Positions 5,304 to 42,272 of a stretch of DNA of 64,000 nucleotides are shown in pieces (within the stretch, counting starts at the first letter, position 1; the number at the start of each line of letters is the position of its first letter). Both the position numbers and the translations under genes were made by a program. Under the pieces are notes generated by a model that searched no databases, was not told the DNA's origin, and was given only the letters and a program-made list of their open reading frames with translations. Origin of the DNA: Corallococcus sp. AB038B (lineage in GTDB: Bacteria; Myxococcota; Myxococcia; Myxococcales; Myxococcaceae); the NCBI RefSeq assembly GCF_003668955.1, contig NZ_RAWO01000002.1, positions 343,605 through 407,604 on the forward strand. The letters are read 5' to 3'.

Positions 5304-8300
5304 ATGAGCCCTCCTTCTCAGCGGCTGATCCAGCTCCTTCCGGGGCTCTACCCGGCGCGGGACTCCACGCTCGCGGATCAGCCGCTCCTCAAGCTGCTCG
5401 CCGTGCTGGGCATGGAGCTGGATGCGTTCGCGCGCGCAGTGGATCAACTCTGGGATGATCATTTCGTGGAGCGTGCAGGCCCGCAGGCGCTGCCGTTGCT
5501 CGCGGAGTTGATGGGCGCACGGCTGATCACCGACAACCCTCGCGTGCAGCGCGGAGTGGTGGCTCGCGCGGTGGCGTGGCGACGACGGAAGGGCACGCTC
5601 GCGTCGCTGGAGGAGGTGCTCTCCGTCACCAGCCTCTGGGACGCGGAAGTGGACGAGTCCTTCCGTTCGCTGCTGGAGACCCAGGACCTCAACGACCTGC
5701 TGCCCTGGCGCGGCCGCAGCGCGGTGATGTGGGATCCCATCGGCCTCGCGGATCCGCTCACCCGCCGCTCGCCTGGCATCGAGCGTCCCCGCGACGGTGT
5801 CCCGGAGCGTGGCCTCTTCATTGGCGTCGCGCCCGGCGAGACGCTGGACCAGGCTTTGCGCCGACTGGGGAGCGCGGACGCAGGCCGTGTTGCCGCGACT
5901 CCGCGCACGCTGGACCTGCTGGGCTGGGCACGTCCGGATGTCGCCCTCATCCGCACCGCGCGCCTGACGCCCGTGGAGTTGGAGGAAGTCACCCCGGCCA
6001 CCGTGCTCACGCTGCCCAACGGCTACCGGGGCTTTCGCGTGGATCCACTCGACCGCGATGCTCCCCTGGTGTGGCTCAAGCCCCTGGAGCGCGCGGACCT
6101 CACGGGAGGCCTCACCGCTCGCCATGAGCCCGCGCCTCCGTCGCTCGTCACGGGACGCACGGCGGCGATGCTGCTCACCCCTACCTCGCTGGCCGAGGAC
6201 GCCGACGCCGCTGAACGCGCGGATGCCATCACCGTCTCCGTCGACGGCATTCCGCTGGTGGGACCGGAAGCCCTGCCACTCCTGCGCGGGCCGCTGCCCA
6301 CCGCGCCCGTGGGGCCCTCGCCCACGCTGCGCTTCGCGGACCGGGGCAGGCCTTCGCCCGGAGACACATGGCGACTGACGCTGCTGGCCGCGCGTGAGAA
6401 CTCGGACACGGTGCTCCTGTCCACCGAGCTTGTGGCGGACGCACTGAATGCCGTCACCGTCACGCCGGAAGCGAACCAGCTCCTGGGTGGCACCACGGCG
6501 GCGTTGCTCGTTGAACGGGTGAGCGGTGATCCGCGCCTGCGCGACGCGGACGGCACGTGGCGCACCCTCACCGTGGGGCTTCGCCAGGGGCCTCCTCGCA
6601 GCAACGCCATCCGCGTGGATCTGGCCGGTGCGCCGTGGGTCGCTCGCATCGAGCAACACCTCGCGGATGGCAGCCTGCGCCTTGCCCGCTTCGACGCGAG
6701 CGCTGACGGCGCGCCCTGGCAGGTGACGGAGCTCATCGGCGCGTTGCCTCCAGACGGTCCAGGCATGTCCCTGGCCATTGCTGGTGACTCACTGTTGCTG
6801 GTGGCGCCGGACGGCACGGGGAAGCTGGGCGTGTGGTCGGTGACGGGCCTGGACACCGCGACTCCGACGGGGACGCGGTTGGACACCGCGAGCCCACGGC
6901 AGCCCTCGGCGCGACTGGCTCCCAGCCTGTGCGTGCGCGGCGGCCGGCTCTTCGTCTTCGGCGGTGACCTGGGCGGCGCGCCCACTGGAGACCTCTGGTC
7001 GCTGCCGGTCACGGGCGGACCGTGGCGGCCCCATGCAGTGCGCAACCGCCAGGAGCGCAAGGCCGCGACGCTGCTGAGCACGGCGCAAGGACTGATGCTC
7101 GTGGGCGGCGAGGCCGTGACGGGAGAACTGGCCGTGCCGGTGATGCTCTGTGACCCGGCCTCCGCGAGCCCTGTCTGGCGCCCCCTGGCCCCACTGCCCA
7201 TCACCGCGAACCTGCCAGGCACGCTCGTGGCAACCACCACCGCCGACGGCGTGGAGGCGCTCGTCTGGGCGGACACGACGCGTCCTCAACGGATGACGCT
7301 GAAGGCAGGCGAGGATGCCTGGGTCGCCGGACTGCTGGAGGCCTCGGGCACGAACCCGCCGGTTCCGGGCGAAGCGCTCTACGTCGATGGGCGCGTGCTC
7401 CTCACGGATCCGGCGCCGCTGCCCGCGTCGGAGATCGTCTTCTCACTGGGCGGTCGCGGCTACCTGGCCTTCCTGCCAGAGCTGGCCCTGCTCCCGGATG
7501 AACTCCTGCGCTTCAACGTCGCCAACGACGGCGCCGCGTTCATCGAACCTCGCGAGGGCCAGCCGCTCCCGCTCGATTCCCGGCCCGGCGGTGCGTACCA
7601 CTCGAGGGATGCTTCCGTGGCCGGCGGTGCGCGGCGCTATTCGGTGCCCGGACGGCTGAGTCGCCACCCGTTCCAGCTGCGCCAGCGAAGCCTGGGCCCG
7701 TGGACGAAGCTCGCTCCGAGCATCGCCTCCGGCATCGTCGCGGTGGATCCACGCCTGGGCCGCGTCGTGATCCAGGACGACGCACCCGTGGGCCGTGTCA
7801 CCGTCTCCGCGCGGGTAGGGCGGGGCGCCTCATTGGGAGCGGGGCTGCTTCCTCCGGACCGCCGTCCGCCCGCCGCGTGGGCGGAGCCGGACTTCCCGTT
7901 CATCGATCCGCCGGACCGTCCTGGCGACCGCTCCGGCACCGGCCTTCCTGTCACCGCGTGGATCTCCCCGGAGCGCGCGGGCGGAGTGCTGGCGGCCGGA
8001 GGCCAGGAGCGGCCCATCGTCGCCACCGTCGCGGATGGACTCCAAGCCGGAGCACCTCCGGTGCTGGGCCTCATCGGTTCGCCGCGTCTTGCTCCGGAGC
8101 GTCTGTCACAGGGCCTGGACAACGGGCTGTCCCTCTTCGCCGCGGACACGGGCGCGGCGCCATGCATCGGCGCGGACGAGCACGGCCTCTCGCTGGCGCT
8201 CTACCCGGGCTTCGGAGGCAGCGCGGCCACGCGCGTGTGGCTCGCGGGCTTGTGGCTCGCGGGGCGGCTGGACCTGGTGCTCGCTCGGGGGCAGGCGGAT

Positions 8301-8945
8301 CTGCGCTGGTGCAACCTGGGCGCGCCCGGACAGGTGGGCGTGTGGATGCCGGGCGGTGGGCACCAGGACATCAGCGCGCGGCGTTCGCTGCCTCCCGCCG
8401 ACGTGGAGCTGCGCCTCTACGGCTGCATGGTGGGCGTCATCGAGCTGCCGCCCTGGGTGCACCTCATCGCCGCGGGCTGCACCTTCGACGCCGGAGACCG
8501 CGACGCCGTCGCCATCCGAGCGGCGGGCGCGACCGTGCGACTGCGGCACTGCACGGTGCTCGGGGCCACGGAAGCGGGTGTGCTGGAGGCTTCCTCCTGC
8601 GCCTTCGCGGGCGAGGTGCGCACGGACCGGCCGGACCTGGGCTGGCTGCGCTACAGCCTCTTCGCGCGCGGCGGACAGCCTCCGGTGTCGCACCAGTCGC
8701 GGGTGCACACCGTGTCCTTCCAGTCGAACCGCCAGACGGACCCGGGCTACCTCGTCCTGGGCGACAACAACGGCCCCGAAGCGCTCCACGCCTCCGAGCG
8801 CGGCGGAGTCCCCGGTGCCCACGACGAGCGCTCTGACCACGAGCGCGAACTCTCCGCGCGCACCGACGACAGCATGCCCATTGGCATCACGCCCTTCCAC
8901 GCCGACCGCAGCCAGGACGACCTCGTTCGGATGAGCCGACCATGA
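5304..8945 (+). CDS. Phage P2 gpI-like baseplate wedge protein (tail protein I family; eCIS Pvc12/Afp12-like) with a C-terminal Kelch-type beta-propeller extension
   Basis: The N-terminus LIQLLPGLYP...LLKLLAVLGMELDAFARAVDQLWDDHF...ALPLLAELMGAR...RRRKGTLASLEEVL matches the Tail_P2_I signature (LLP..., LW, LPxLA, KGT). Repeated Kelch-like blades are present (GGRLFVFGGDLGGAPTGDLWSL..., LMLVGGEAVTGEL...). The stop overlaps the next start (ATGA at 8942). Confidence 0.65.
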   Translation: MSPPSQRLIQLLPGLYPARDSTLADQPLLKLLAVLGMELDAFARAVDQLWDDHFVERAGPQALPLLAELMGARLITDNPRVQRGVVARAVAWRRRKGTLASLEEVLSVTSLWDAEVDESFRSLLETQDLNDLLPWRGRSAVMWDPIGLADPLTRRSPGIERPRDGVPERGLFIGVAPGETLDQALRRLGSADAGRVAATPRTLDLLGWARPDVALIRTARLTPVELEEVTPATVLTLPNGYRGFRVDPLDRDAPLVWLKPLERADLTGGLTARHEPAPPSLVTGRTAAMLLTPTSLAEDADAAERADAITVSVDGIPLVGPEALPLLRGPLPTAPVGPSPTLRFADRGRPSPGDTWRLTLLAARENSDTVLLSTELVADALNAVTVTPEANQLLGGTTAALLVERVSGDPRLRDADGTWRTLTVGLRQGPPRSNAIRVDLAGAPWVARIEQHLADGSLRLARFDASADGAPWQVTELIGALPPDGPGMSLAIAGDSLLLVAPDGTGKLGVWSVTGLDTATPTGTRLDTASPRQPSARLAPSLCVRGGRLFVFGGDLGGAPTGDLWSLPVTGGPWRPHAVRNRQERKAATLLSTAQGLMLVGGEAVTGELAVPVMLCDPASASPVWRPLAPLPITANLPGTLVATTTADGVEALVWADTTRPQRMTLKAGEDAWVAGLLEASGTNPPVPGEALYVDGRVLLTDPAPLPASEIVFSLGGRGYLAFLPELALLPDELLRFNVANDGAAFIEPREGQPLPLDSRPGGAYHSRDASVAGGARRYSVPGRLSRHPFQLRQRSLGPWTKLAPSIASGIVAVDPRLGRVVIQDDAPVGRVTVSARVGRGASLGAGLLPPDRRPPAAWAEPDFPFIDPPDRPGDRSGTGLPVTAWISPERAGGVLAAGGQERPIVATVADGLQAGAPPVLGLIGSPRLAPERLSQGLDNGLSLFAADTGAAPCIGADEHGLSLALYPGFGGSAATRVWLAGLWLAGRLDLVLARGQADLRWCNLGAPGQVGVWMPGGGHQDISARRSLPPADVELRLYGCMVGVIELPPWVHLIAAGCTFDAGDRDAVAIRAAGATVRLRHCTVLGATEAGVLEASSCAFAGEVRTDRPDLGWLRYSLFARGGQPPVSHQSRVHTVSFQSNRQTDPGYLVLGDNNGPEALHASERGGVPGAHDERSDHERELSARTDDSMPIGITPFHADRSQDDLVRMSRP

Positions 8946-35555: not shown

Positions 35556-37997
35556 CTAGGTCATCTCCACATCGAGGACCAGCGAGGCCCGGATGGGATG
35601 TCCATGACTGCTCCAGAAGCGATGGAGCAGGTCAAAGTCATAACTCTCCTGGACGCGAGGTGTGAGCTTGCGGCCATCCAGCTCGTGCGGGAGTCCACGG
35701 GAGAGCAACCCATGCAACACGCCAAGCAGCTCATGTTCCTCCTCCGCGCGGTGTGACCACGCGGAGACGATGAGCCCCAACCGCAGCGCACCGTTCTGGG
35801 TGACAGCCAGCCGGTAGAGCGCGAGCGACACAGCGGGCCGCTTCCCCGCGAGCGCCTCCCGGGTGGGGGAGCCGTGGAGGATGTGGACCTCCTTGAGGAA
35901 GTGTTGTCTGAGCTGCGAATCCAGTGCCTCCTGGAACACTTCCGCCACGCGACGAAGGCGTGTGCCCGCGTCCGAGGGAGCCTCCGCCTCCGGGCGCCGC
36001 GAGAGCCGGCCCAGCTCATACAGCTCCAGCGCGACGGCGCGCTCCAGGTGCTCCTGGGCCAGCGGAGCACCCGCCTGTTCGGCGAGGAAGATGGCCTTGA
36101 GCGCGGCGTTGCGGATGTCGCCGCCCGCCAGCCGGTGCCGCTGCGCCAGTCCCGCCAGGTCGAGAGCCCCCGCGCGAGGCACACCCTCCGGAAGCATCAG
36201 CTCCCAGATGCGGCGGCGCTCGTCGACCTCGGGGAAGGGGAACTCGATGCGCGCGTGGAAGCGCCGCAGGAAGGCTTCATCGATGGCCGTCTGCAGGTTG
36301 GTGGCGAGGATGATCAGCCCGTCGTGACGTTCGATGCGCTGGAGGAGGAAGCCGACCTCCAGGTTGGCGAAGCGGTCATTGGCGTTGCTGACCTCCGTGC
36401 GCGCGGAGAACAGCGAGTCCGCCTCGTCGAAGAACAGCACGGCGCCGGAGCGCTCGCCGTGGGACAGCACCTCGTCGATGTTCTTCTCCGTCTCGCCCAC
36501 GTACTTGCTGACGAGCCGGGACAGGTCGATGACATACAGCGGCCGGCCCACCGCATGGGCGATGACCTCCGCGGCCAAGGTCTTGCCAGTGCCGGAGCGT
36601 CCGGAGAAGAGCGCCACCGGCCCCGTGTGCATCCGGAAGCGACGTGACAGGCCACGCTCTTCGGCGACGCGGTCGCGCTGGGCCACGTAGAACAGCAGTC
36701 GCTCCAAGGCCGCGCGAGTGGTGTCACGCACCACGAGGTCCGCGAAGGTCCGCGACGTCTCCAGCCGGTAGCCATGGCGCAAAGGCACCTGGACAAGCCG
36801 CGAGGCCGCGGCACGAAGCGCATCCGCGTCACCGCCCGGAGCCGAGTCGAACACGCGGCGGATCTCCTGAACCCCGCCCCGAAAGCCAGACGCCAGCCGT
36901 CCCGCGTCCACTTCCGTCAATGACAATCCCCGGACCCGGGCCTCCTCCAGCCACAGGGTCCGCCGCTGGACGAAGCCTGGAGCGGGTGCCTCATGGTGCG
37001 GCACGGCGAAGGGCTGCGCGGAGTCCGCGAGCACCAGGGCCCGCCCGCCAAACCGTTGGCACAATCCAGACAGCGTCTCCGTGACGGAGAGTGCCAGCCC
37101 CCGCTCACCCCCGGACATGTCCACGGCCAGCATCGCGCCGCGCACGGAGGCCAGACGCCACAGGGCCCGGGCCATGGAAACCGGCTCTGGAGCCCCTGCC
37201 CACCGAGCGACAACCAGCGGTACACCGGCTTCGTCAGCGAGGCTCATCGCCACGCCCAGCCGCTCTCCTTCGCCATGCACGACAGCGAACGTCCCGAGTG
37301 ACGAAGACGGCAGCACCTCCGGTCCATGCCATTCCAGCGAGAGCTCGCCCAGCACGGAGGGCCTGGGCAGTTCCAGCAGGGCCTCGCGGACCTCCGGAGC
37401 CAGGTCCACGGGCCGGAGCATGGGAGGAAAAGCGCCAGCGCCCGTCTGCAAAAATCCACCGCCCACCAGGAGTCCGCTGTCGGTCAGGGACGCCAGCAAG
37501 CGCTGCGCGCGAGCAGGCGTGCGTCCCAGGACGGTGAGCAGCAACCGCTCCACGTTCCATCCCTGCGCGGTCTCGTCCTGGAGCACGGCGAACAGGCGCG
37601 AGTACCGGGGCTCCAGCCACGTCGCGAGCAGGAGCAGCAGCGCCTCCTCCTCCACGGTGTCGACGCGAAGCGAAGCCCGCAGCCGCGCGAAGGGAAGGGG
37701 AGGCGAAGTCCCCAGGAGCGGCGTCTCCGCGAGCGCCGAGCTGAAGGCGAGCTCGGCGGTGGAAGGGCGCACGGTGGTGCGCACGGCATCCCAGCCATTC
37801 TCCTGTTCCCCCCGGAGCTTCGAAGCGCGGGCCTCCTCCAGGTCACACACCTGGACGAGCAGCGCATCCAGACGCCTCAGCGTCTCCCCCCACAACGGAT
37901 CCATGGGCGCCTCCAGCCGGCCAGCATACGGAGGGCGGGTGGATCCGGCCATGGACGGGCCTGGAGGGCAGGTTCCACTGCGTTGGTATTCCGCCAA
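35556..37997 (-). CDS. AAA+ ATPase with large N-terminal region (eCIS Afp15/Pvc15-like ATPase by context)
   Basis: Walker A LFSGRSGTGKTLAAEVIA, Walker B VLFFDEADSLF and sensor-1 GLIILATNL sit in the C-terminal half of the 813-aa protein. It is immediately upstream (31-bp gap) of the giant effector-like gene. Alternative starts exist at about 37952 and 37904. Confidence 0.7.
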   Translation of the reverse strand: MAEYQRSGTCPPGPSMAGSTRPPYAGRLEAPMDPLWGETLRRLDALLVQVCDLEEARASKLRGEQENGWDAVRTTVRPSTAELAFSSALAETPLLGTSPPLPFARLRASLRVDTVEEEALLLLLATWLEPRYSRLFAVLQDETAQGWNVERLLLTVLGRTPARAQRLLASLTDSGLLVGGGFLQTGAGAFPPMLRPVDLAPEVREALLELPRPSVLGELSLEWHGPEVLPSSSLGTFAVVHGEGERLGVAMSLADEAGVPLVVARWAGAPEPVSMARALWRLASVRGAMLAVDMSGGERGLALSVTETLSGLCQRFGGRALVLADSAQPFAVPHHEAPAPGFVQRRTLWLEEARVRGLSLTEVDAGRLASGFRGGVQEIRRVFDSAPGGDADALRAAASRLVQVPLRHGYRLETSRTFADLVVRDTTRAALERLLFYVAQRDRVAEERGLSRRFRMHTGPVALFSGRSGTGKTLAAEVIAHAVGRPLYVIDLSRLVSKYVGETEKNIDEVLSHGERSGAVLFFDEADSLFSARTEVSNANDRFANLEVGFLLQRIERHDGLIILATNLQTAIDEAFLRRFHARIEFPFPEVDERRRIWELMLPEGVPRAGALDLAGLAQRHRLAGGDIRNAALKAIFLAEQAGAPLAQEHLERAVALELYELGRLSRRPEAEAPSDAGTRLRRVAEVFQEALDSQLRQHFLKEVHILHGSPTREALAGKRPAVSLALYRLAVTQNGALRLGLIVSAWSHRAEEEHELLGVLHGLLSRGLPHELDGRKLTPRVQESYDFDLLHRFWSSHGHPIRASLVLDVEMT

Positions 37998-38050
37998 TGG
38001 ATTGGAGGAAGTGCTGACCGGGTGGCGGGGCGGGTGGTAGAGACCGGCAC

Positions 38051-38551
38051 ATGACTCAGAGTGGTACTGAAGGGGTGTCGGCCCTGGACTTCCGGGAGGC
38101 GATGTCCCGGTGGGCGAGCGGGGTGGCGGTGGTCTCCGTCCGTGATGCGGACGGGATCGCGGCGACGACGGTCAGCTCCTTCAGTTCCCTCTCCCTGACG
38201 CCTCCGCTGATTGCCCTGGCGCTGCAGCAGTCCTCCCGCACGCTCAAGCGCGTGGAGGCCGCCCGCCGCTTCAGTGTGAGCGTGCTGTCCACCATCCAAC
38301 GCGACGTGTCGGTCCGCTGCGCGAAGGGGGAGGCCGAAGGCCGGATGTTCGACGAAGGAGCCTTCGTGCAGGACAGCCTGGTGGGTCTGGCGTGCGCTCT
38401 GTTGGATGTGCACCGTTACGGCGATCACCTGTTGCTGGTGGGCCGCGTGGAGCGCATCCAGCGGGGAGTGGACGAAGAACCGTTGCTCTACTGGAACCGG
38501 GGGTATCGCGCGCTGACGGCGCACCCGGAGCCAGGGCCCGCCCCGAAGTAG
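38051..38551 (+). CDS. Flavin reductase family protein (FMN-binding, HpaC-like)
   Basis: WASGVAVVSVRDADGIAATTVSSFSSLSLTPPLIALAL is the typical flavin-reductase domain signature. Confidence 0.75.
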   Translation: MTQSGTEGVSALDFREAMSRWASGVAVVSVRDADGIAATTVSSFSSLSLTPPLIALALQQSSRTLKRVEAARRFSVSVLSTIQRDVSVRCAKGEAEGRMFDEGAFVQDSLVGLACALLDVHRYGDHLLLVGRVERIQRGVDEEPLLYWNRGYRALTAHPEPGPAPK

Positions 38552-39509: not shown

Positions 39510-42242
39510 TTATTGCGGGGAAGACCGGGCTCCCACCAATCCTTTCACCAGATACAGCCGGGAAAGCGCTTCGTTGTAACTGTATGTGTAGAACTTTCCG
39601 TCCTCGGAGATCGCCAGCGTCATCACGGAGATGAGGCCCGGCATGACGCCCCCCGCCGGAAGGGTCAGGTGTGGCGTGCTCGCGCCGGTCTTCACGTCGA
39701 CCCTGGAGACGCGCACCGGGAGCGAGACGCTTCGCAGATAGAGCGCCGTTCCGCTCGCGTCCCAGCCCGCCACCCATTGATTCGTGAACCGGCCGGGGAC
39801 GGTGCCTTGCGCCTCACCCGTCTGGGAGAACAGGCGGAGGCTTCCCTCCGCGTCCACGGTCGCGAGGCGGAGGCCATCGGGTGAGATGACCGTGTGGAAG
39901 CCCGTGCCTTCCTCTGTGATGGGCCTGGGGGCTCCGGAGCCGGGTTCGAAGACCCAGAGCCGGGCAGGACGTCCCTCTTCGTGCGCGCGAAGGAGCAACC
40001 GCTTCCCATCCGGGAACCAGCGCGCCGTGAGCACCGTGGTGACAGGAGCGAGCGACAGCGACCGAGGCTCGCCCGCGCCCGTGGGCAGCAGCAGGAACTC
40101 CATCTGTTCGCCGTAGCGCACCAGCAGCACCTGCTTGCCGTCCGGAGACAGCGCCATGGGGATGCCGTCGCCCAGGCGGATCGGTGGTGCGCCATCGGAG
40201 GTGCGCAGATAGGCGCCGTAGGTGGGGCCCTCCACCTCCGCGCCCTCGGTGAAGAGGAAGGTCCGGCCATCGCGGGACATGTCCGTCATGAACGACGAGT
40301 CCGACCACGTCAGGTCCCGCTCCGTGCCCGCGTGCCCGAACGCCAGCCCCGTGCGGATCACCGGGTGATCCACCAGGACGGAGCCGTCCTGGGAGATGTC
40401 ATGCAGCACCATCCGCCCGGCGATCCGATCCACCGGCCGCGTCGTGCCGCGCAGGTCGACCGCGAACAGCTCGGAGTCCGCGCCTGTACGCGAGGCGGTG
40501 AACCACACCTCGCTTCCATCGGGAGACCACGCCAGGCCCCGGATGCTCGCCCAGTCCGACGAAAGCTCGCGGGGCGGACCGTCCTTCTCCAGCACCCAGA
40601 CCCCGCCCCGGTCGTCCTTGGGATGTGCATGGAACAGAAAGGCGATCCGCGCTCCGTCGGGGGAGACGCGTGCGTGGCTGATCCATCCCTGGGATTCGAA
40701 GCGCACCGTGCCGGGGGGCTGCTCCAGCCGGAAGTTCTCGCCCACGCGGCGCACCACCGCGAGCGGTCCATCCGCACGTCCCCAGTCCGCCTCCAGCACG
40801 CCATCGAGCACGGCCCGGGGCGCGCCGCCCGCGAGCGGCATCAAGCCGAGCGTCCCGCTGCCATGCTCGGCGTCGAAGAACCGGGGCTCGAGCAGCACCG
40901 CCAGCTCCCCCTTCGAGGACGCGGCGAGCACATCCGCGTGCTGCCCCAGCGGTTGTGACAGCGGACGCTCCGTGCGCGCGCTGTAGAGCTCCGCGGGTCC
41001 TCCCTCCCACGCCGCGCCATAGAGCAACGTGTGTCCGTCCGCGGAGAACCGGGCGTTGAGCACGTGGCCCCGGCGGAACGTGACGGGGCGGTACGTCGGG
41101 CGTGAGGACTGCGCCGTTGGCACCGCCGCAGTCGCCGGCCTGTGTCCGAACGCCAGGAAGCCACCCACGACAGACAGCAGCACGGCCGCCGCGGCCACCC
41201 ACAGGGCAGGGCGTGGGAACACTCCGCGCCGCAAGGCCAGGGGCGCACCACGAGCCGCGATGGACTCCAGGGCGAAGGCCAGGTCCTGCGCGGACTGGAA
41301 CCGTTCGCCTGGATCCTTCGCCAGACAGCGAGCAATCACCGTCCCCAGCTCTCCCGGCAGCACGGGAGGCGCATCGCGGAGCGCGGCGCTCATCCGCTCC
41401 ACCGGGCTGTCACCGCCAAAGGGACCACGGCCGCTCACGGCCTCGTAGAGCACCGCGCCGAGTGAGAACACATCCGCGCGAGCATCCACGCCCTGGCCGC
41501 GGATCTGCTCCGGAGCCATGTACCCGGCGGTGCCCACCACCGCGCCGCTCTGGGTGAGCGAGGCGTCCCCGGTGTGCTCGACGCGCTCGGTGAGCCGGGC
41601 CAGCCCGAAGTCGAGGATCCGCGCTCCGCCGTTCGAGCACAGGAAGATGTTCGCGGGCTTGAGGTCTCGGTGGATGACACCCCGCGCGTGCGCGGCCGCG
41701 AGCCCCTGGGACAACTGGATGCCCAGCCGCAGCGCCTGCTCTGGTGGAAGCGGCCCACGCATCAGCCGCGCCCGCAGGGTGCCCCCCTCCAGCCACTCGG
41801 TGACGAGGTACGGCACGTCCTCGTGGGTCCCCACGTCGAACAGCGTGAGCAGGTGGGGATGGGACAGCGCGCCCGCCGCGCGGGCCTCCTGTCGGAAACG
41901 GGCCAGGCGCTCCGCGTCCTGCGCGAACCGGAGCGGGAGCACCTTCAAGGCCACGTCCCGTCCCAGCCGCCCATCGCGAGCCCGGTACACGTCCCCCATC
42001 GCGCCACTGCCCGCATGGGCGACGATGACGTACGGCCCCACCCGCTCCCCAGGAGCGAACGAGCGGGGCGGAGCCGCCTCCACGAACCGGCCCTCCGCGT
42101 GCCACGTCGCCGCGACGGCCGCGAGCAGCGACCCGCAGGAATCGCAGCGGGACAGGTGCGCCTCCGCGAGGGCGCGCTGCTCATGCGGCAGGCGGTCCTC
42201 CACGAAGGCGAGAATCGTTTCCTCGGAGGGACATCCCGACAT
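39510..42242 (-). CDS. Serine/threonine protein kinase with C-terminal TolB-like WD40/beta-propeller domain
   Basis: Hanks kinase motifs: GAMGDVYRA (G-loop), VALKVL (VAIK), HRDLKPANIF, DFGLAR, GTAGYMAPE. A single TM segment is followed by repeated propeller blades (SPDG...VL). Confidence 0.9.
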   Translation of the reverse strand: MSGCPSEETILAFVEDRLPHEQRALAEAHLSRCDSCGSLLAAVAATWHAEGRFVEAAPPRSFAPGERVGPYVIVAHAGSGAMGDVYRARDGRLGRDVALKVLPLRFAQDAERLARFRQEARAAGALSHPHLLTLFDVGTHEDVPYLVTEWLEGGTLRARLMRGPLPPEQALRLGIQLSQGLAAAHARGVIHRDLKPANIFLCSNGGARILDFGLARLTERVEHTGDASLTQSGAVVGTAGYMAPEQIRGQGVDARADVFSLGAVLYEAVSGRGPFGGDSPVERMSAALRDAPPVLPGELGTVIARCLAKDPGERFQSAQDLAFALESIAARGAPLALRRGVFPRPALWVAAAAVLLSVVGGFLAFGHRPATAAVPTAQSSRPTYRPVTFRRGHVLNARFSADGHTLLYGAAWEGGPAELYSARTERPLSQPLGQHADVLAASSKGELAVLLEPRFFDAEHGSGTLGLMPLAGGAPRAVLDGVLEADWGRADGPLAVVRRVGENFRLEQPPGTVRFESQGWISHARVSPDGARIAFLFHAHPKDDRGGVWVLEKDGPPRELSSDWASIRGLAWSPDGSEVWFTASRTGADSELFAVDLRGTTRPVDRIAGRMVLHDISQDGSVLVDHPVIRTGLAFGHAGTERDLTWSDSSFMTDMSRDGRTFLFTEGAEVEGPTYGAYLRTSDGAPPIRLGDGIPMALSPDGKQVLLVRYGEQMEFLLLPTGAGEPRSLSLAPVTTVLTARWFPDGKRLLLRAHEEGRPARLWVFEPGSGAPRPITEEGTGFHTVISPDGLRLATVDAEGSLRLFSQTGEAQGTVPGRFTNQWVAGWDASGTALYLRSVSLPVRVSRVDVKTGASTPHLTLPAGGVMPGLISVMTLAISEDGKFYTYSYNEALSRLYLVKGLVGARSSPQ

Positions 42243-42272
42243 GGTGGGACGCGACTCTAGGATTGTTCGCGC

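Follow-up and report, generated by a model that had tools for sequence, protein, structure and literature searches.

The fibres of extracellular contractile injection systems (eCIS) decide which targets the particles engage, and efforts at targeted protein delivery are re-engineering them. According to the text of a recent catalogue (Nachmias et al., Nat Commun 2026; PMC12923769), eCIS tail fibres carry one of five N-terminal baseplate-anchor domains, of which eBAP5 is DUF6519. As reported there, eBAP5 occurs in 658 fibre genes and correlates with Actinomycetota; these fibres are encoded after Tail_P2_I-type genes, are predicted to dock onto Tail_P2_I and often end in pectin-lyase beta-helices, the 'mega pectin lyase' fibre of Rhizobium grahamii measuring 1079 amino acids (aa). 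Here we describe a gene for a 2535-aa protein, the giant, in a 64,000-nucleotide stretch of Corallococcus sp. AB038B (assembly GCF_003668955.1, contig NZ_RAWO01000002.1, positions 343,605 to 407,604, forward strand; hereafter the window). By its anchor and its locus context, the giant belongs to the eBAP5/DUF6519-anchored fibre class. With the eBAP5 fibres described in the article it shares the N-terminal DUF6519, a gene directly 3' of a Tail_P2_I-type gene, a beta-helix after the anchor and an occurrence in Actinomycetota, Pseudomonadota and Myxococcota. We think that the giant is probably a baseplate-anchored, glycan-binding and possibly glycan-cleaving, tailspike-like peripheral fibre of a distinct contractile injection system (CIS) lineage, which spans Corallococcus and other Myxococcota, Actinomycetota and Alphaproteobacteria.

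The gene, its anchor region and its locus

An open reading frame of 2535 aa runs from ATG to stop exactly at 8942-16549 on the forward strand. At the 72% G+C of the window long open frames are expected by chance, and the length of the frame alone is not enough to call a gene. It is a real coding gene and not a high-GC artefact, because the G+C content follows a coding pattern over the three codon positions (0.75/0.48/0.93, that is, 0.93 at the third), about 85 full-length homologues exist and the ratio of non-synonymous to synonymous substitution rates (dN/dS) against the C. coralloides orthologue is 0.28. A 1397-aa antisense frame inside it (9749-13942, reverse strand) is the usual high-GC shadow. 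Since the homologues start at the same motif, MxxKAYTSRSRFDE, the start codon at 8942 is correct. The ATG shares four bases (ATGA, 8942-8945) with the TGA of the upstream Tail_P2_I/Kelch gene, and this overlap suggests that the two genes are translationally coupled. As expected of a particle component, the giant has no signal peptide-like or transmembrane segment, its sole Kyte-Doolittle peak above 2 being a beta-helix strand.

How is the protein attached? The whole of the first ~620 residues is a divergent DUF6519 region, as an N-terminal Pfam match and a profile alignment to the DUF6519 core together indicate. Pfam DUF6519 (PF20129) scores 36.5 bits on the whole protein (cut-off 22.4) and 42.4 bits on aa 1-620, with the best-aligned stretch being mainly aa 7-53 only; with hhalign, the family profile of aa 262-700 matches ordinary DUF6519 proteins at 100% probability (E 1e-46), and the core lies at about aa 262-600. 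The structure was predicted by AlphaFold2 with 30 homologues as two monomer models, covering aa 1-1200 (predicted local distance difference test, pLDDT, 83) and aa 1336-2535 (pLDDT 77). In the first model, aa 1-600 form mostly beta domains, with a helix at aa 605-617. The initial annotation had assigned the N-terminal ~1100 residues to a beta-helix, which is right from aa 626 onward and wrong for the DUF6519 region, a set of several beta domains. The all-beta insertion in this region is enlarged (~208 aa versus ~115 aa in ordinary DUF6519 proteins) and probably accounts for the weaker matches of the aa 1-1200 model to carbohydrate-binding modules CBM4 and CBM22 in Foldseek (1k42, E 4e-4, TMt 0.56). 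The DUF6519 region is also the most conserved part of the giant, with 50-68% identity across phyla and dozens of invariant charged residues, as expected of an interface with multiple partners.

The gene follows those for Baseplate_J, a gp6-like wedge protein and the Tail_P2_I/Kelch protein, which is the fibre position that had been proposed for it and corresponds to the place of gpH in phage P2, after the J- and I-type genes. The upstream context was taken from a sister species, C. exercitus, in which the 10 kb upstream of Baseplate_J encode a sheath, a gp19-type tube, a CIS_tube protein, a LysM/tail-X protein and a gpD-type hub. Because the window holds baseplate and spike genes and C. exercitus supplies sheath, tube and hub, the locus is a complete CIS. 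Hub (Phage_GPD; C. exercitus locus 6644-8116) and spike are separate genes that flank the baseplate and fibre genes. The DUF6519 anchor presumably docks onto the Tail_P2_I/Kelch protein. The genes around the giant stand in the same order in C. coralloides, Micromonospora, a Rhodospirillaceae metagenome-assembled genome (MAG) and Mesorhizobium, four loci from three phyla. It is this conserved order, together with the DUF6519 anchor, the CIS context, the ATGA overlap and the lack of signal peptide and transmembrane segments, that leads us to favour a fibre.

Beta-helices and the helical domain

The first beta-helix opens with a pectate-lyase-type N-terminal cap (VVVGDG..FGD..Q..EG.TGDEALQAA). 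Its rungs are modelled at aa 626-728 and 844-1138, with pLDDT mostly 85-97, and are followed by helices at aa 1152-1199; a Pfam Beta_helix match covers about aa 851-966. Residues 1201-1335 lie outside the two models, and for aa 1201-1270 it is the GN motifs seen at aa 1205-1270 that point to further rungs, after which the sequence reads as a Pro-rich linker. The giant matches tail spikes in PHROG (E 1.5e-5), and Foldseek aligns the aa 1-1200 model (E 1e-6 to 1e-4) with a GH87 alpha-1,3-glucanase, the adhesin PfbA, the lyase RbmB, the K64-1 depolymerase and the tailspikes of HK620, Sf6 and P22. In the second beta-helix, the rungs together comprise ~256 residues that align to solved beta-helices at the level of the fold, with an invariant Asn ladder at N1922, N1957, N2015, N2045, N2195, N2221, N2245, N2270 and N2516. 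After the excursion at aa 2314-2472 the chain returns for a last rung, and aa 2501-2535 are 56% identical across phyla. Both stretches are right-handed parallel beta-helices that match tailspikes, polysaccharide lyases, epimerases and glycosidases by fold, at 7-17% sequence identity to all of these matches. The structure prediction thus upholds the expected beta-helix and refutes an all-helical, tape-measure-like protein. The proposal that the remaining ~1400 residues are Ala/Leu/Gln-rich helices fails: helices are confined to aa ~1336-1885 and 2314-2472, and rungs recur at aa 1908-2062, 2186-2274 and 2503-2533.

If the beta-helices were catalytic, the giant would be a depolymerase proper (lyase, hydrolase or epimerase), whose main role would be to clear a path to the membrane for the baseplate by digesting a capsule, an exopolysaccharide or a glycan of the cell wall. 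Its top structural neighbours are enzymes (GH87 alpha-1,3-glucanase, RbmB lyase, AlgE4 epimerase, GH110, PL6 and phage depolymerases), and some polar residues are strongly conserved: H2030, R2048, H2049, Y2233, R2235 and D2238 are nearly invariant in the second beta-helix and D851 is invariant in the first. However, the non-enzymatic adhesins PfbA, Vag8, UpaB and EtpA score as well as the enzymes among the fold matches, the identity to either is as low as given above, and most invariant residues in both beta-helices are Gly and the Asn ladder of the rung turns. The search for a catalytic Asp/Glu constellation, suggested at the outset, established none, and no family signature emerged: Pfam applied to separate segments, with E values as high as 5 allowed, returns only DUF6519 and Beta_helix, NCBIfam returns nothing for the giant, and PDB sequence searches with the giant and with the family profile give nothing significant. 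We therefore consider an active depolymerase unlikely.

Between the two beta-helix stretches, a family-specific domain of ~550-600 aa is modelled as a compact multi-helix bundle. Residues 1271-1900 contain 13.5% Ala, 13.2% Leu and 7.5% Gln. The domain is the fastest-evolving part of the protein (20-30% identity across phyla), has no Foldseek match in the PDB with E<0.1 and no sequence relative there. Among 1.84 billion representative proteins, searched exhaustively, it occurs inside the giant family only, in 24 clusters, always at about residues 1280-1920 of proteins of ~2400-2840 aa, or in fragments. The initial annotation had pictured a tailspike on a long coiled-coil shaft; the DUF6519 anchor and the beta-helix fold matches speak for the fibre or tailspike half of that picture, and we rejected the shaft, the longest modelled helix having 30 residues. 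Comparing the profile of the helical domain with itself gives a hint of helical-bundle repeats in tandem, in the form of a weak off-diagonal match shifted by ~105 residues (probability 39%, E 3e-4).

A very long protein with a ~550-aa helical stretch could also be a tape measure or a toxin-like cargo rather than an external appendage, and large cargo is common near CIS loci, as with a 2690-aa annexin protein in the window and eCIS_core proteins in the loci of two relatives. Yet only about a quarter of the giant is helical, in short helices; its gene follows the baseplate genes instead of lying between those for tube and hub; its N terminus is an anchor domain of fibres; Pfam detects no toxin domain in the whole protein or its segments; and, unlike variable cargo, it is syntenic in every relative examined. 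With about three quarters of the protein non-helical and the gene so placed, we rejected this explanation, which strikes us as very improbable.

Conservation of the giant and its neighbourhood

Homologues of the giant fall into two groups separated by a sharp gap, with bit scores dropping from 937 to 71. The first consists of about 85 proteins of 2400-2840 aa (a few of them fragments) that are 37-99% identical to the giant, the closest being a 99% identical protein of Corallococcus exiguus. Named members come from Myxococcota (Corallococcus, Sorangium, Minicystis), Actinomycetota (Micromonospora, Cryptosporangium, Cellulomonas) and Alphaproteobacteria (Rhodospirillaceae, Mesorhizobium). The second group, ordinary DUF6519 proteins of 1400-1800 aa, shares only the N-terminal 12-18%. 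A scan of IMG/VR viral contigs turned up no relatives. Across phyla, the beta-helices (36-58% identity) rank between the DUF6519 region and the helical domain, and the excursions are the least conserved and carry indels.

Several observations weigh against a fibre that binds glycans and selects targets. The relatives are collinear with the giant over 90-100% of its length, unlike ordinary modular, fast-evolving fibres, and the giant diverges no faster than the neighbouring baseplate genes: between the window and the four loci its identity is ~41%, compared with 38-46% for the 840-aa wedge protein and 39-45% for the Tail_P2_I/Kelch protein; the 536-aa protein reaches 39-45% and the spike 55-64%. 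Within Corallococcus, no hypervariable block appears and selection is purifying, with dN/dS against C. coralloides of 0.12-0.55 per 250-codon segment, higher in the C-terminal half. Judged by these sequences, the giant behaves as a co-evolving core component and not as a modular, horizontally shuffled eCIS fibre. The suggestion that it is the target-specificity determinant is accordingly doubtful: baseplate-rate divergence of a collinear protein in three phyla, under purifying selection and without swapped modules, is not what it would lead one to look for. In addition, Pfam, NCBIfam and PDB sequence searches give the giant no carbohydrate-active family signature or catalytic motif, and the role of the helical domain is left unexplained by a fibre model.

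The main alternative draws on the same observations. The giant could be a fixed structural component of an enlarged baseplate, such as a skirt, cage or anchoring arm, that co-assembles with other oversized baseplate proteins; the remaining baseplate genes of the lineage are indeed unusually large (Baseplate_J 1250-1550 aa, Tail_P2_I/Kelch 1213-1284 aa). It might even tether the particle to a conserved structure of the producer, such as its envelope or peptidoglycan, in the manner of the membrane-bound fibres of the thylakoid-anchored CIS; intracellular or anchored CIS are known (cited in the text of PMC12923769). The collinear architecture of the full 2400-2840 aa in three phyla, an identity equal to that of the neighbouring baseplate genes and purifying selection along the whole length would all follow. 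On the other side, the giant has the DUF6519 anchor and the gene position seen in catalogued fibres, a beta-helix fold of the kind typically found in depolymerases and in proteins that bind surface glycans, and no membrane segment; binding to the producer's own surface is further opposed by the different envelopes of Gram-negative and Gram-positive producers, unless the ligand is peptidoglycan. On this balance we regard a purely structural role as possible and somewhat doubtful. If it were true, the rule that DUF6519 means fibre would need qualifying.

For a peripheral fibre, which we continue to favour, a mechanism can be outlined. The giant, probably trimeric, would use its DUF6519 domain to dock at the baseplate rim onto the Tail_P2_I/Kelch protein, and the beta-helices would bind, and may cleave, surface polysaccharide. 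Engagement of the glycan would orient the baseplate on the target and pass on the signal for sheath contraction, and cargo would then be driven into the target by the spike, whose gene lies just downstream. The conservation of the entire architecture across phyla makes it likely that the ligand is a glycan both widespread and conserved, not a strain-specific receptor; such a ligand would offer a clue to which prey or hosts the injection systems of myxobacteria and actinobacteria act on. More tentatively, the giant may be an obligatory, co-evolving building block, rather than an exchangeable fibre, of a structurally undescribed CIS baseplate architecture in a lineage shared by Gram-negative and Gram-positive soil bacteria; this lineage would be marked by unusually large J and I proteins, separate genes for hub and spike and a hidden proline-rich gene, and the helical domain of the giant would have a new function, for example in trigger sensing or gating or in holding cargo.

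The neighbouring genes (Table 1) add several observations. The Kelch-type propeller of the ~1200-aa Tail_P2_I protein could itself bind a ligand at the baseplate. Two small genes, of 113 and 70 aa, lie directly 3' of the giant in all four loci examined, and neither product has a significant family match. Beyond the spike follow further conserved genes of 64, 536 and 720 aa, of which the 536-aa protein may be the tape measure of this system, encoded after the spike. The apparently uncalled ~403-aa gene has a Pro/Arg-rich, presumably disordered product whose N terminus holds a conserved motif (LLxELDRVLHPL...PPLPP); Pro-rich open frames bearing this motif lie over the matching uncalled gaps of C. 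coralloides, Micromonospora, the Rhodospirillaceae MAG and Mesorhizobium. Since DNA synteny with C. coralloides stops at window position 24407, the block beyond may be a variable cargo region. In it, the 2690-aa protein with annexin repeats, which are best known in eukaryotic proteins, lies beside the AAA+/Pvc16_N ATPase and may be a cargo of the CIS. Farther downstream, a polysaccharide biosynthesis and export cluster (43900-63999) borders the CIS locus, with several GT4 glycosyltransferases, WecG/TagA, a Wzx-like flippase, a Wzz-like protein and a sigma-54 activator; this cluster and the Ser/Thr kinase before it are consistent with a myxobacterial chromosome.

Table 1. Features of the giant and of the surrounding locus, in window positions
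Feature	Residues or length	Positions	Strand	Evidence or remark
Giant gene	2535 aa	8942..16549	+	ATG overlaps TGA of upstream Tail_P2_I/Kelch gene
Divergent DUF6519 (eBAP5) baseplate-anchor region	aa 1-620	8942..10801	+	Pfam, hhalign, AlphaFold2, conservation
N-terminal DUF6519 signature (TSRSRFDE...QQMGR..LDADWNEE)	aa 7-53	8960..9100	+	Pfam, alignment, AlphaFold2; long helix aa 31-54
All-beta insertion	aa ~60-260	9119..9721	+	hhalign, AlphaFold2, Foldseek
First right-handed parallel beta-helix	aa 626-1270	10817..12751	+	Pfam, AlphaFold2, Foldseek, PHROG
Excursion from first beta-helix	aa 738-843	11153..11470	+	disordered/variable aa 738-784, then three conserved helices
Family-specific helical domain	aa 1336-1885	12947..14596	+	24 helices of 5-30 residues, aa 1338-1884, pLDDT 85-93 (AlphaFold2)
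Second beta-helix	aa 1908-2533	14663..16540	+	rungs aa 1908-2062, 2186-2274, 2503-2533
Excursion from second beta-helix	aa 2068-2185	15143..15496	+	variable, low-confidence, Pro-rich
Hairpin	aa 2296-2312			AlphaFold2 model
Helical excursion	aa 2314-2472	15881..16357	+	pLDDT 40-70; variable, large indels between relatives
Baseplate_J (baseplate wedge gene)	3' part of ~1256 aa	57-2402	+	window opens inside gene
gp6-like baseplate wedge protein	840 aa	2399-4921	+	PHROG baseplate wedge E 8e-15; TIGR02243 E 3e-43
Tail_P2_I (N-terminal) + Kelch-type beta-propeller	1213 aa	5304-8945	+	domain matches
Small conserved gene	113 aa	16581-16922	+	directly 3' of giant gene
Small conserved gene	70 aa	16919-17131	+	second 3' of giant gene
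gp5/VgrG-like spike	395 aa	17128-18315	+	Phage_base_V (E 6e-24) + Gp5_trimer_C
Conserved protein	536 aa	18483-20093	+	weak PHROG match to tail length tape-measure proteins (E 2e-4)
Apparently uncalled gene	~403 aa	22249-23460	+	fills 1.2-kb gap after 720-aa gene; ATGA overlaps at both ends
Annexin-repeat protein	2690 aa	27452-35524	-	three annexin repeats (E 2e-20); weak DUF6782 metallopeptidase-like match near C terminus
AAA+ ATPase with Pvc16_N-like end		35556-38171	-	domain match
Ser/Thr kinase with WD40/PD40 repeats		39510-42272	-	just upstream of polysaccharide cluster

Comparison with known systems

Finally, we would like to place the giant among the described fibres and spikes. The initial annotation had pointed to Afp13 and Pvc13 of the Serratia Afp and Photorhabdus PVC particles, which, as the text of PMC12923769 describes, are anchored through eBAP1, a domain of ~50 aa, contain shaft repeats of the adenovirus type and bind Afp12 and Pvc12. 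The giant has in common with them the presumed role of a peripheral eCIS fibre and the general position after the baseplate genes. It is set apart by its domain content: a DUF6519 anchor, a body of beta-helix and helical bundle, and a Tail_P2_I adaptor. Pfam finds no shaft-repeat family in the whole protein or its segments, and with a DUF6519 N terminus and no shaft repeats detected we rejected, on domain content and not by a direct alignment to Pvc13, a fibre of the Afp13/Pvc13 type.

Phage tailspike depolymerases (P22, Sf6, HK620, Klebsiella phage K64-1 S2-4 and the CBA120 TSPs) likewise place an anchoring N-terminal domain before a right-handed parallel beta-helix. The comparison with phage depolymerases proposed earlier is sound at the level of the fold and does not extend to the sequence: identity is 7-16%, the N-terminal anchor is a different one, and the giant has two beta-helix segments and a giant helical insert. 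Towards phage P2 gpH and R-type pyocin fibres, which attach via gpI (Tail_P2_I), the resemblance is positional only, the gene standing in the place of gpH after J- and I-type genes. By position only, too, the 113-aa gene occupies the place of the P2 fibre-assembly gene. In contrast to P2, the Tail_P2_I protein here is ~1200 aa long with a Kelch propeller, and the spike gene is differently ordered. An ordinary DUF6519 locus, in Nocardioides, has the P2-like order of spike, gp25, J, further genes and fibre, whereas in the locus of the giant the spike comes after the fibre and the hub is a separate gene upstream.

The closest relatives remain the eBAP5 fibres as presented in the article text of PMC12923769. 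Compared with these, the DUF6519 of the giant is strongly divergent, with an enlarged beta insertion, and its beta-helix is split by a unique helical domain of ~550-600 aa, in addition to three further excursions; it is ~2.4 times longer than the R. grahamii fibre. A modular, fast-evolving C-terminal part, typical of the class though not strictly defining, is replaced by an architecture fixed across phyla. As this subfamily indicates, DUF6519 fibres need not be swappable modules and can instead be fixed machine parts of very large size and several domains; the subfamily also contributes a well-predicted helical domain of ~550 aa without structural precedent. The class was catalogued in 2026; set against the text of that article rather than its list of 658 genes, what is new here is a giant, fixed subfamily spread over three phyla and built around a helical domain of its own.

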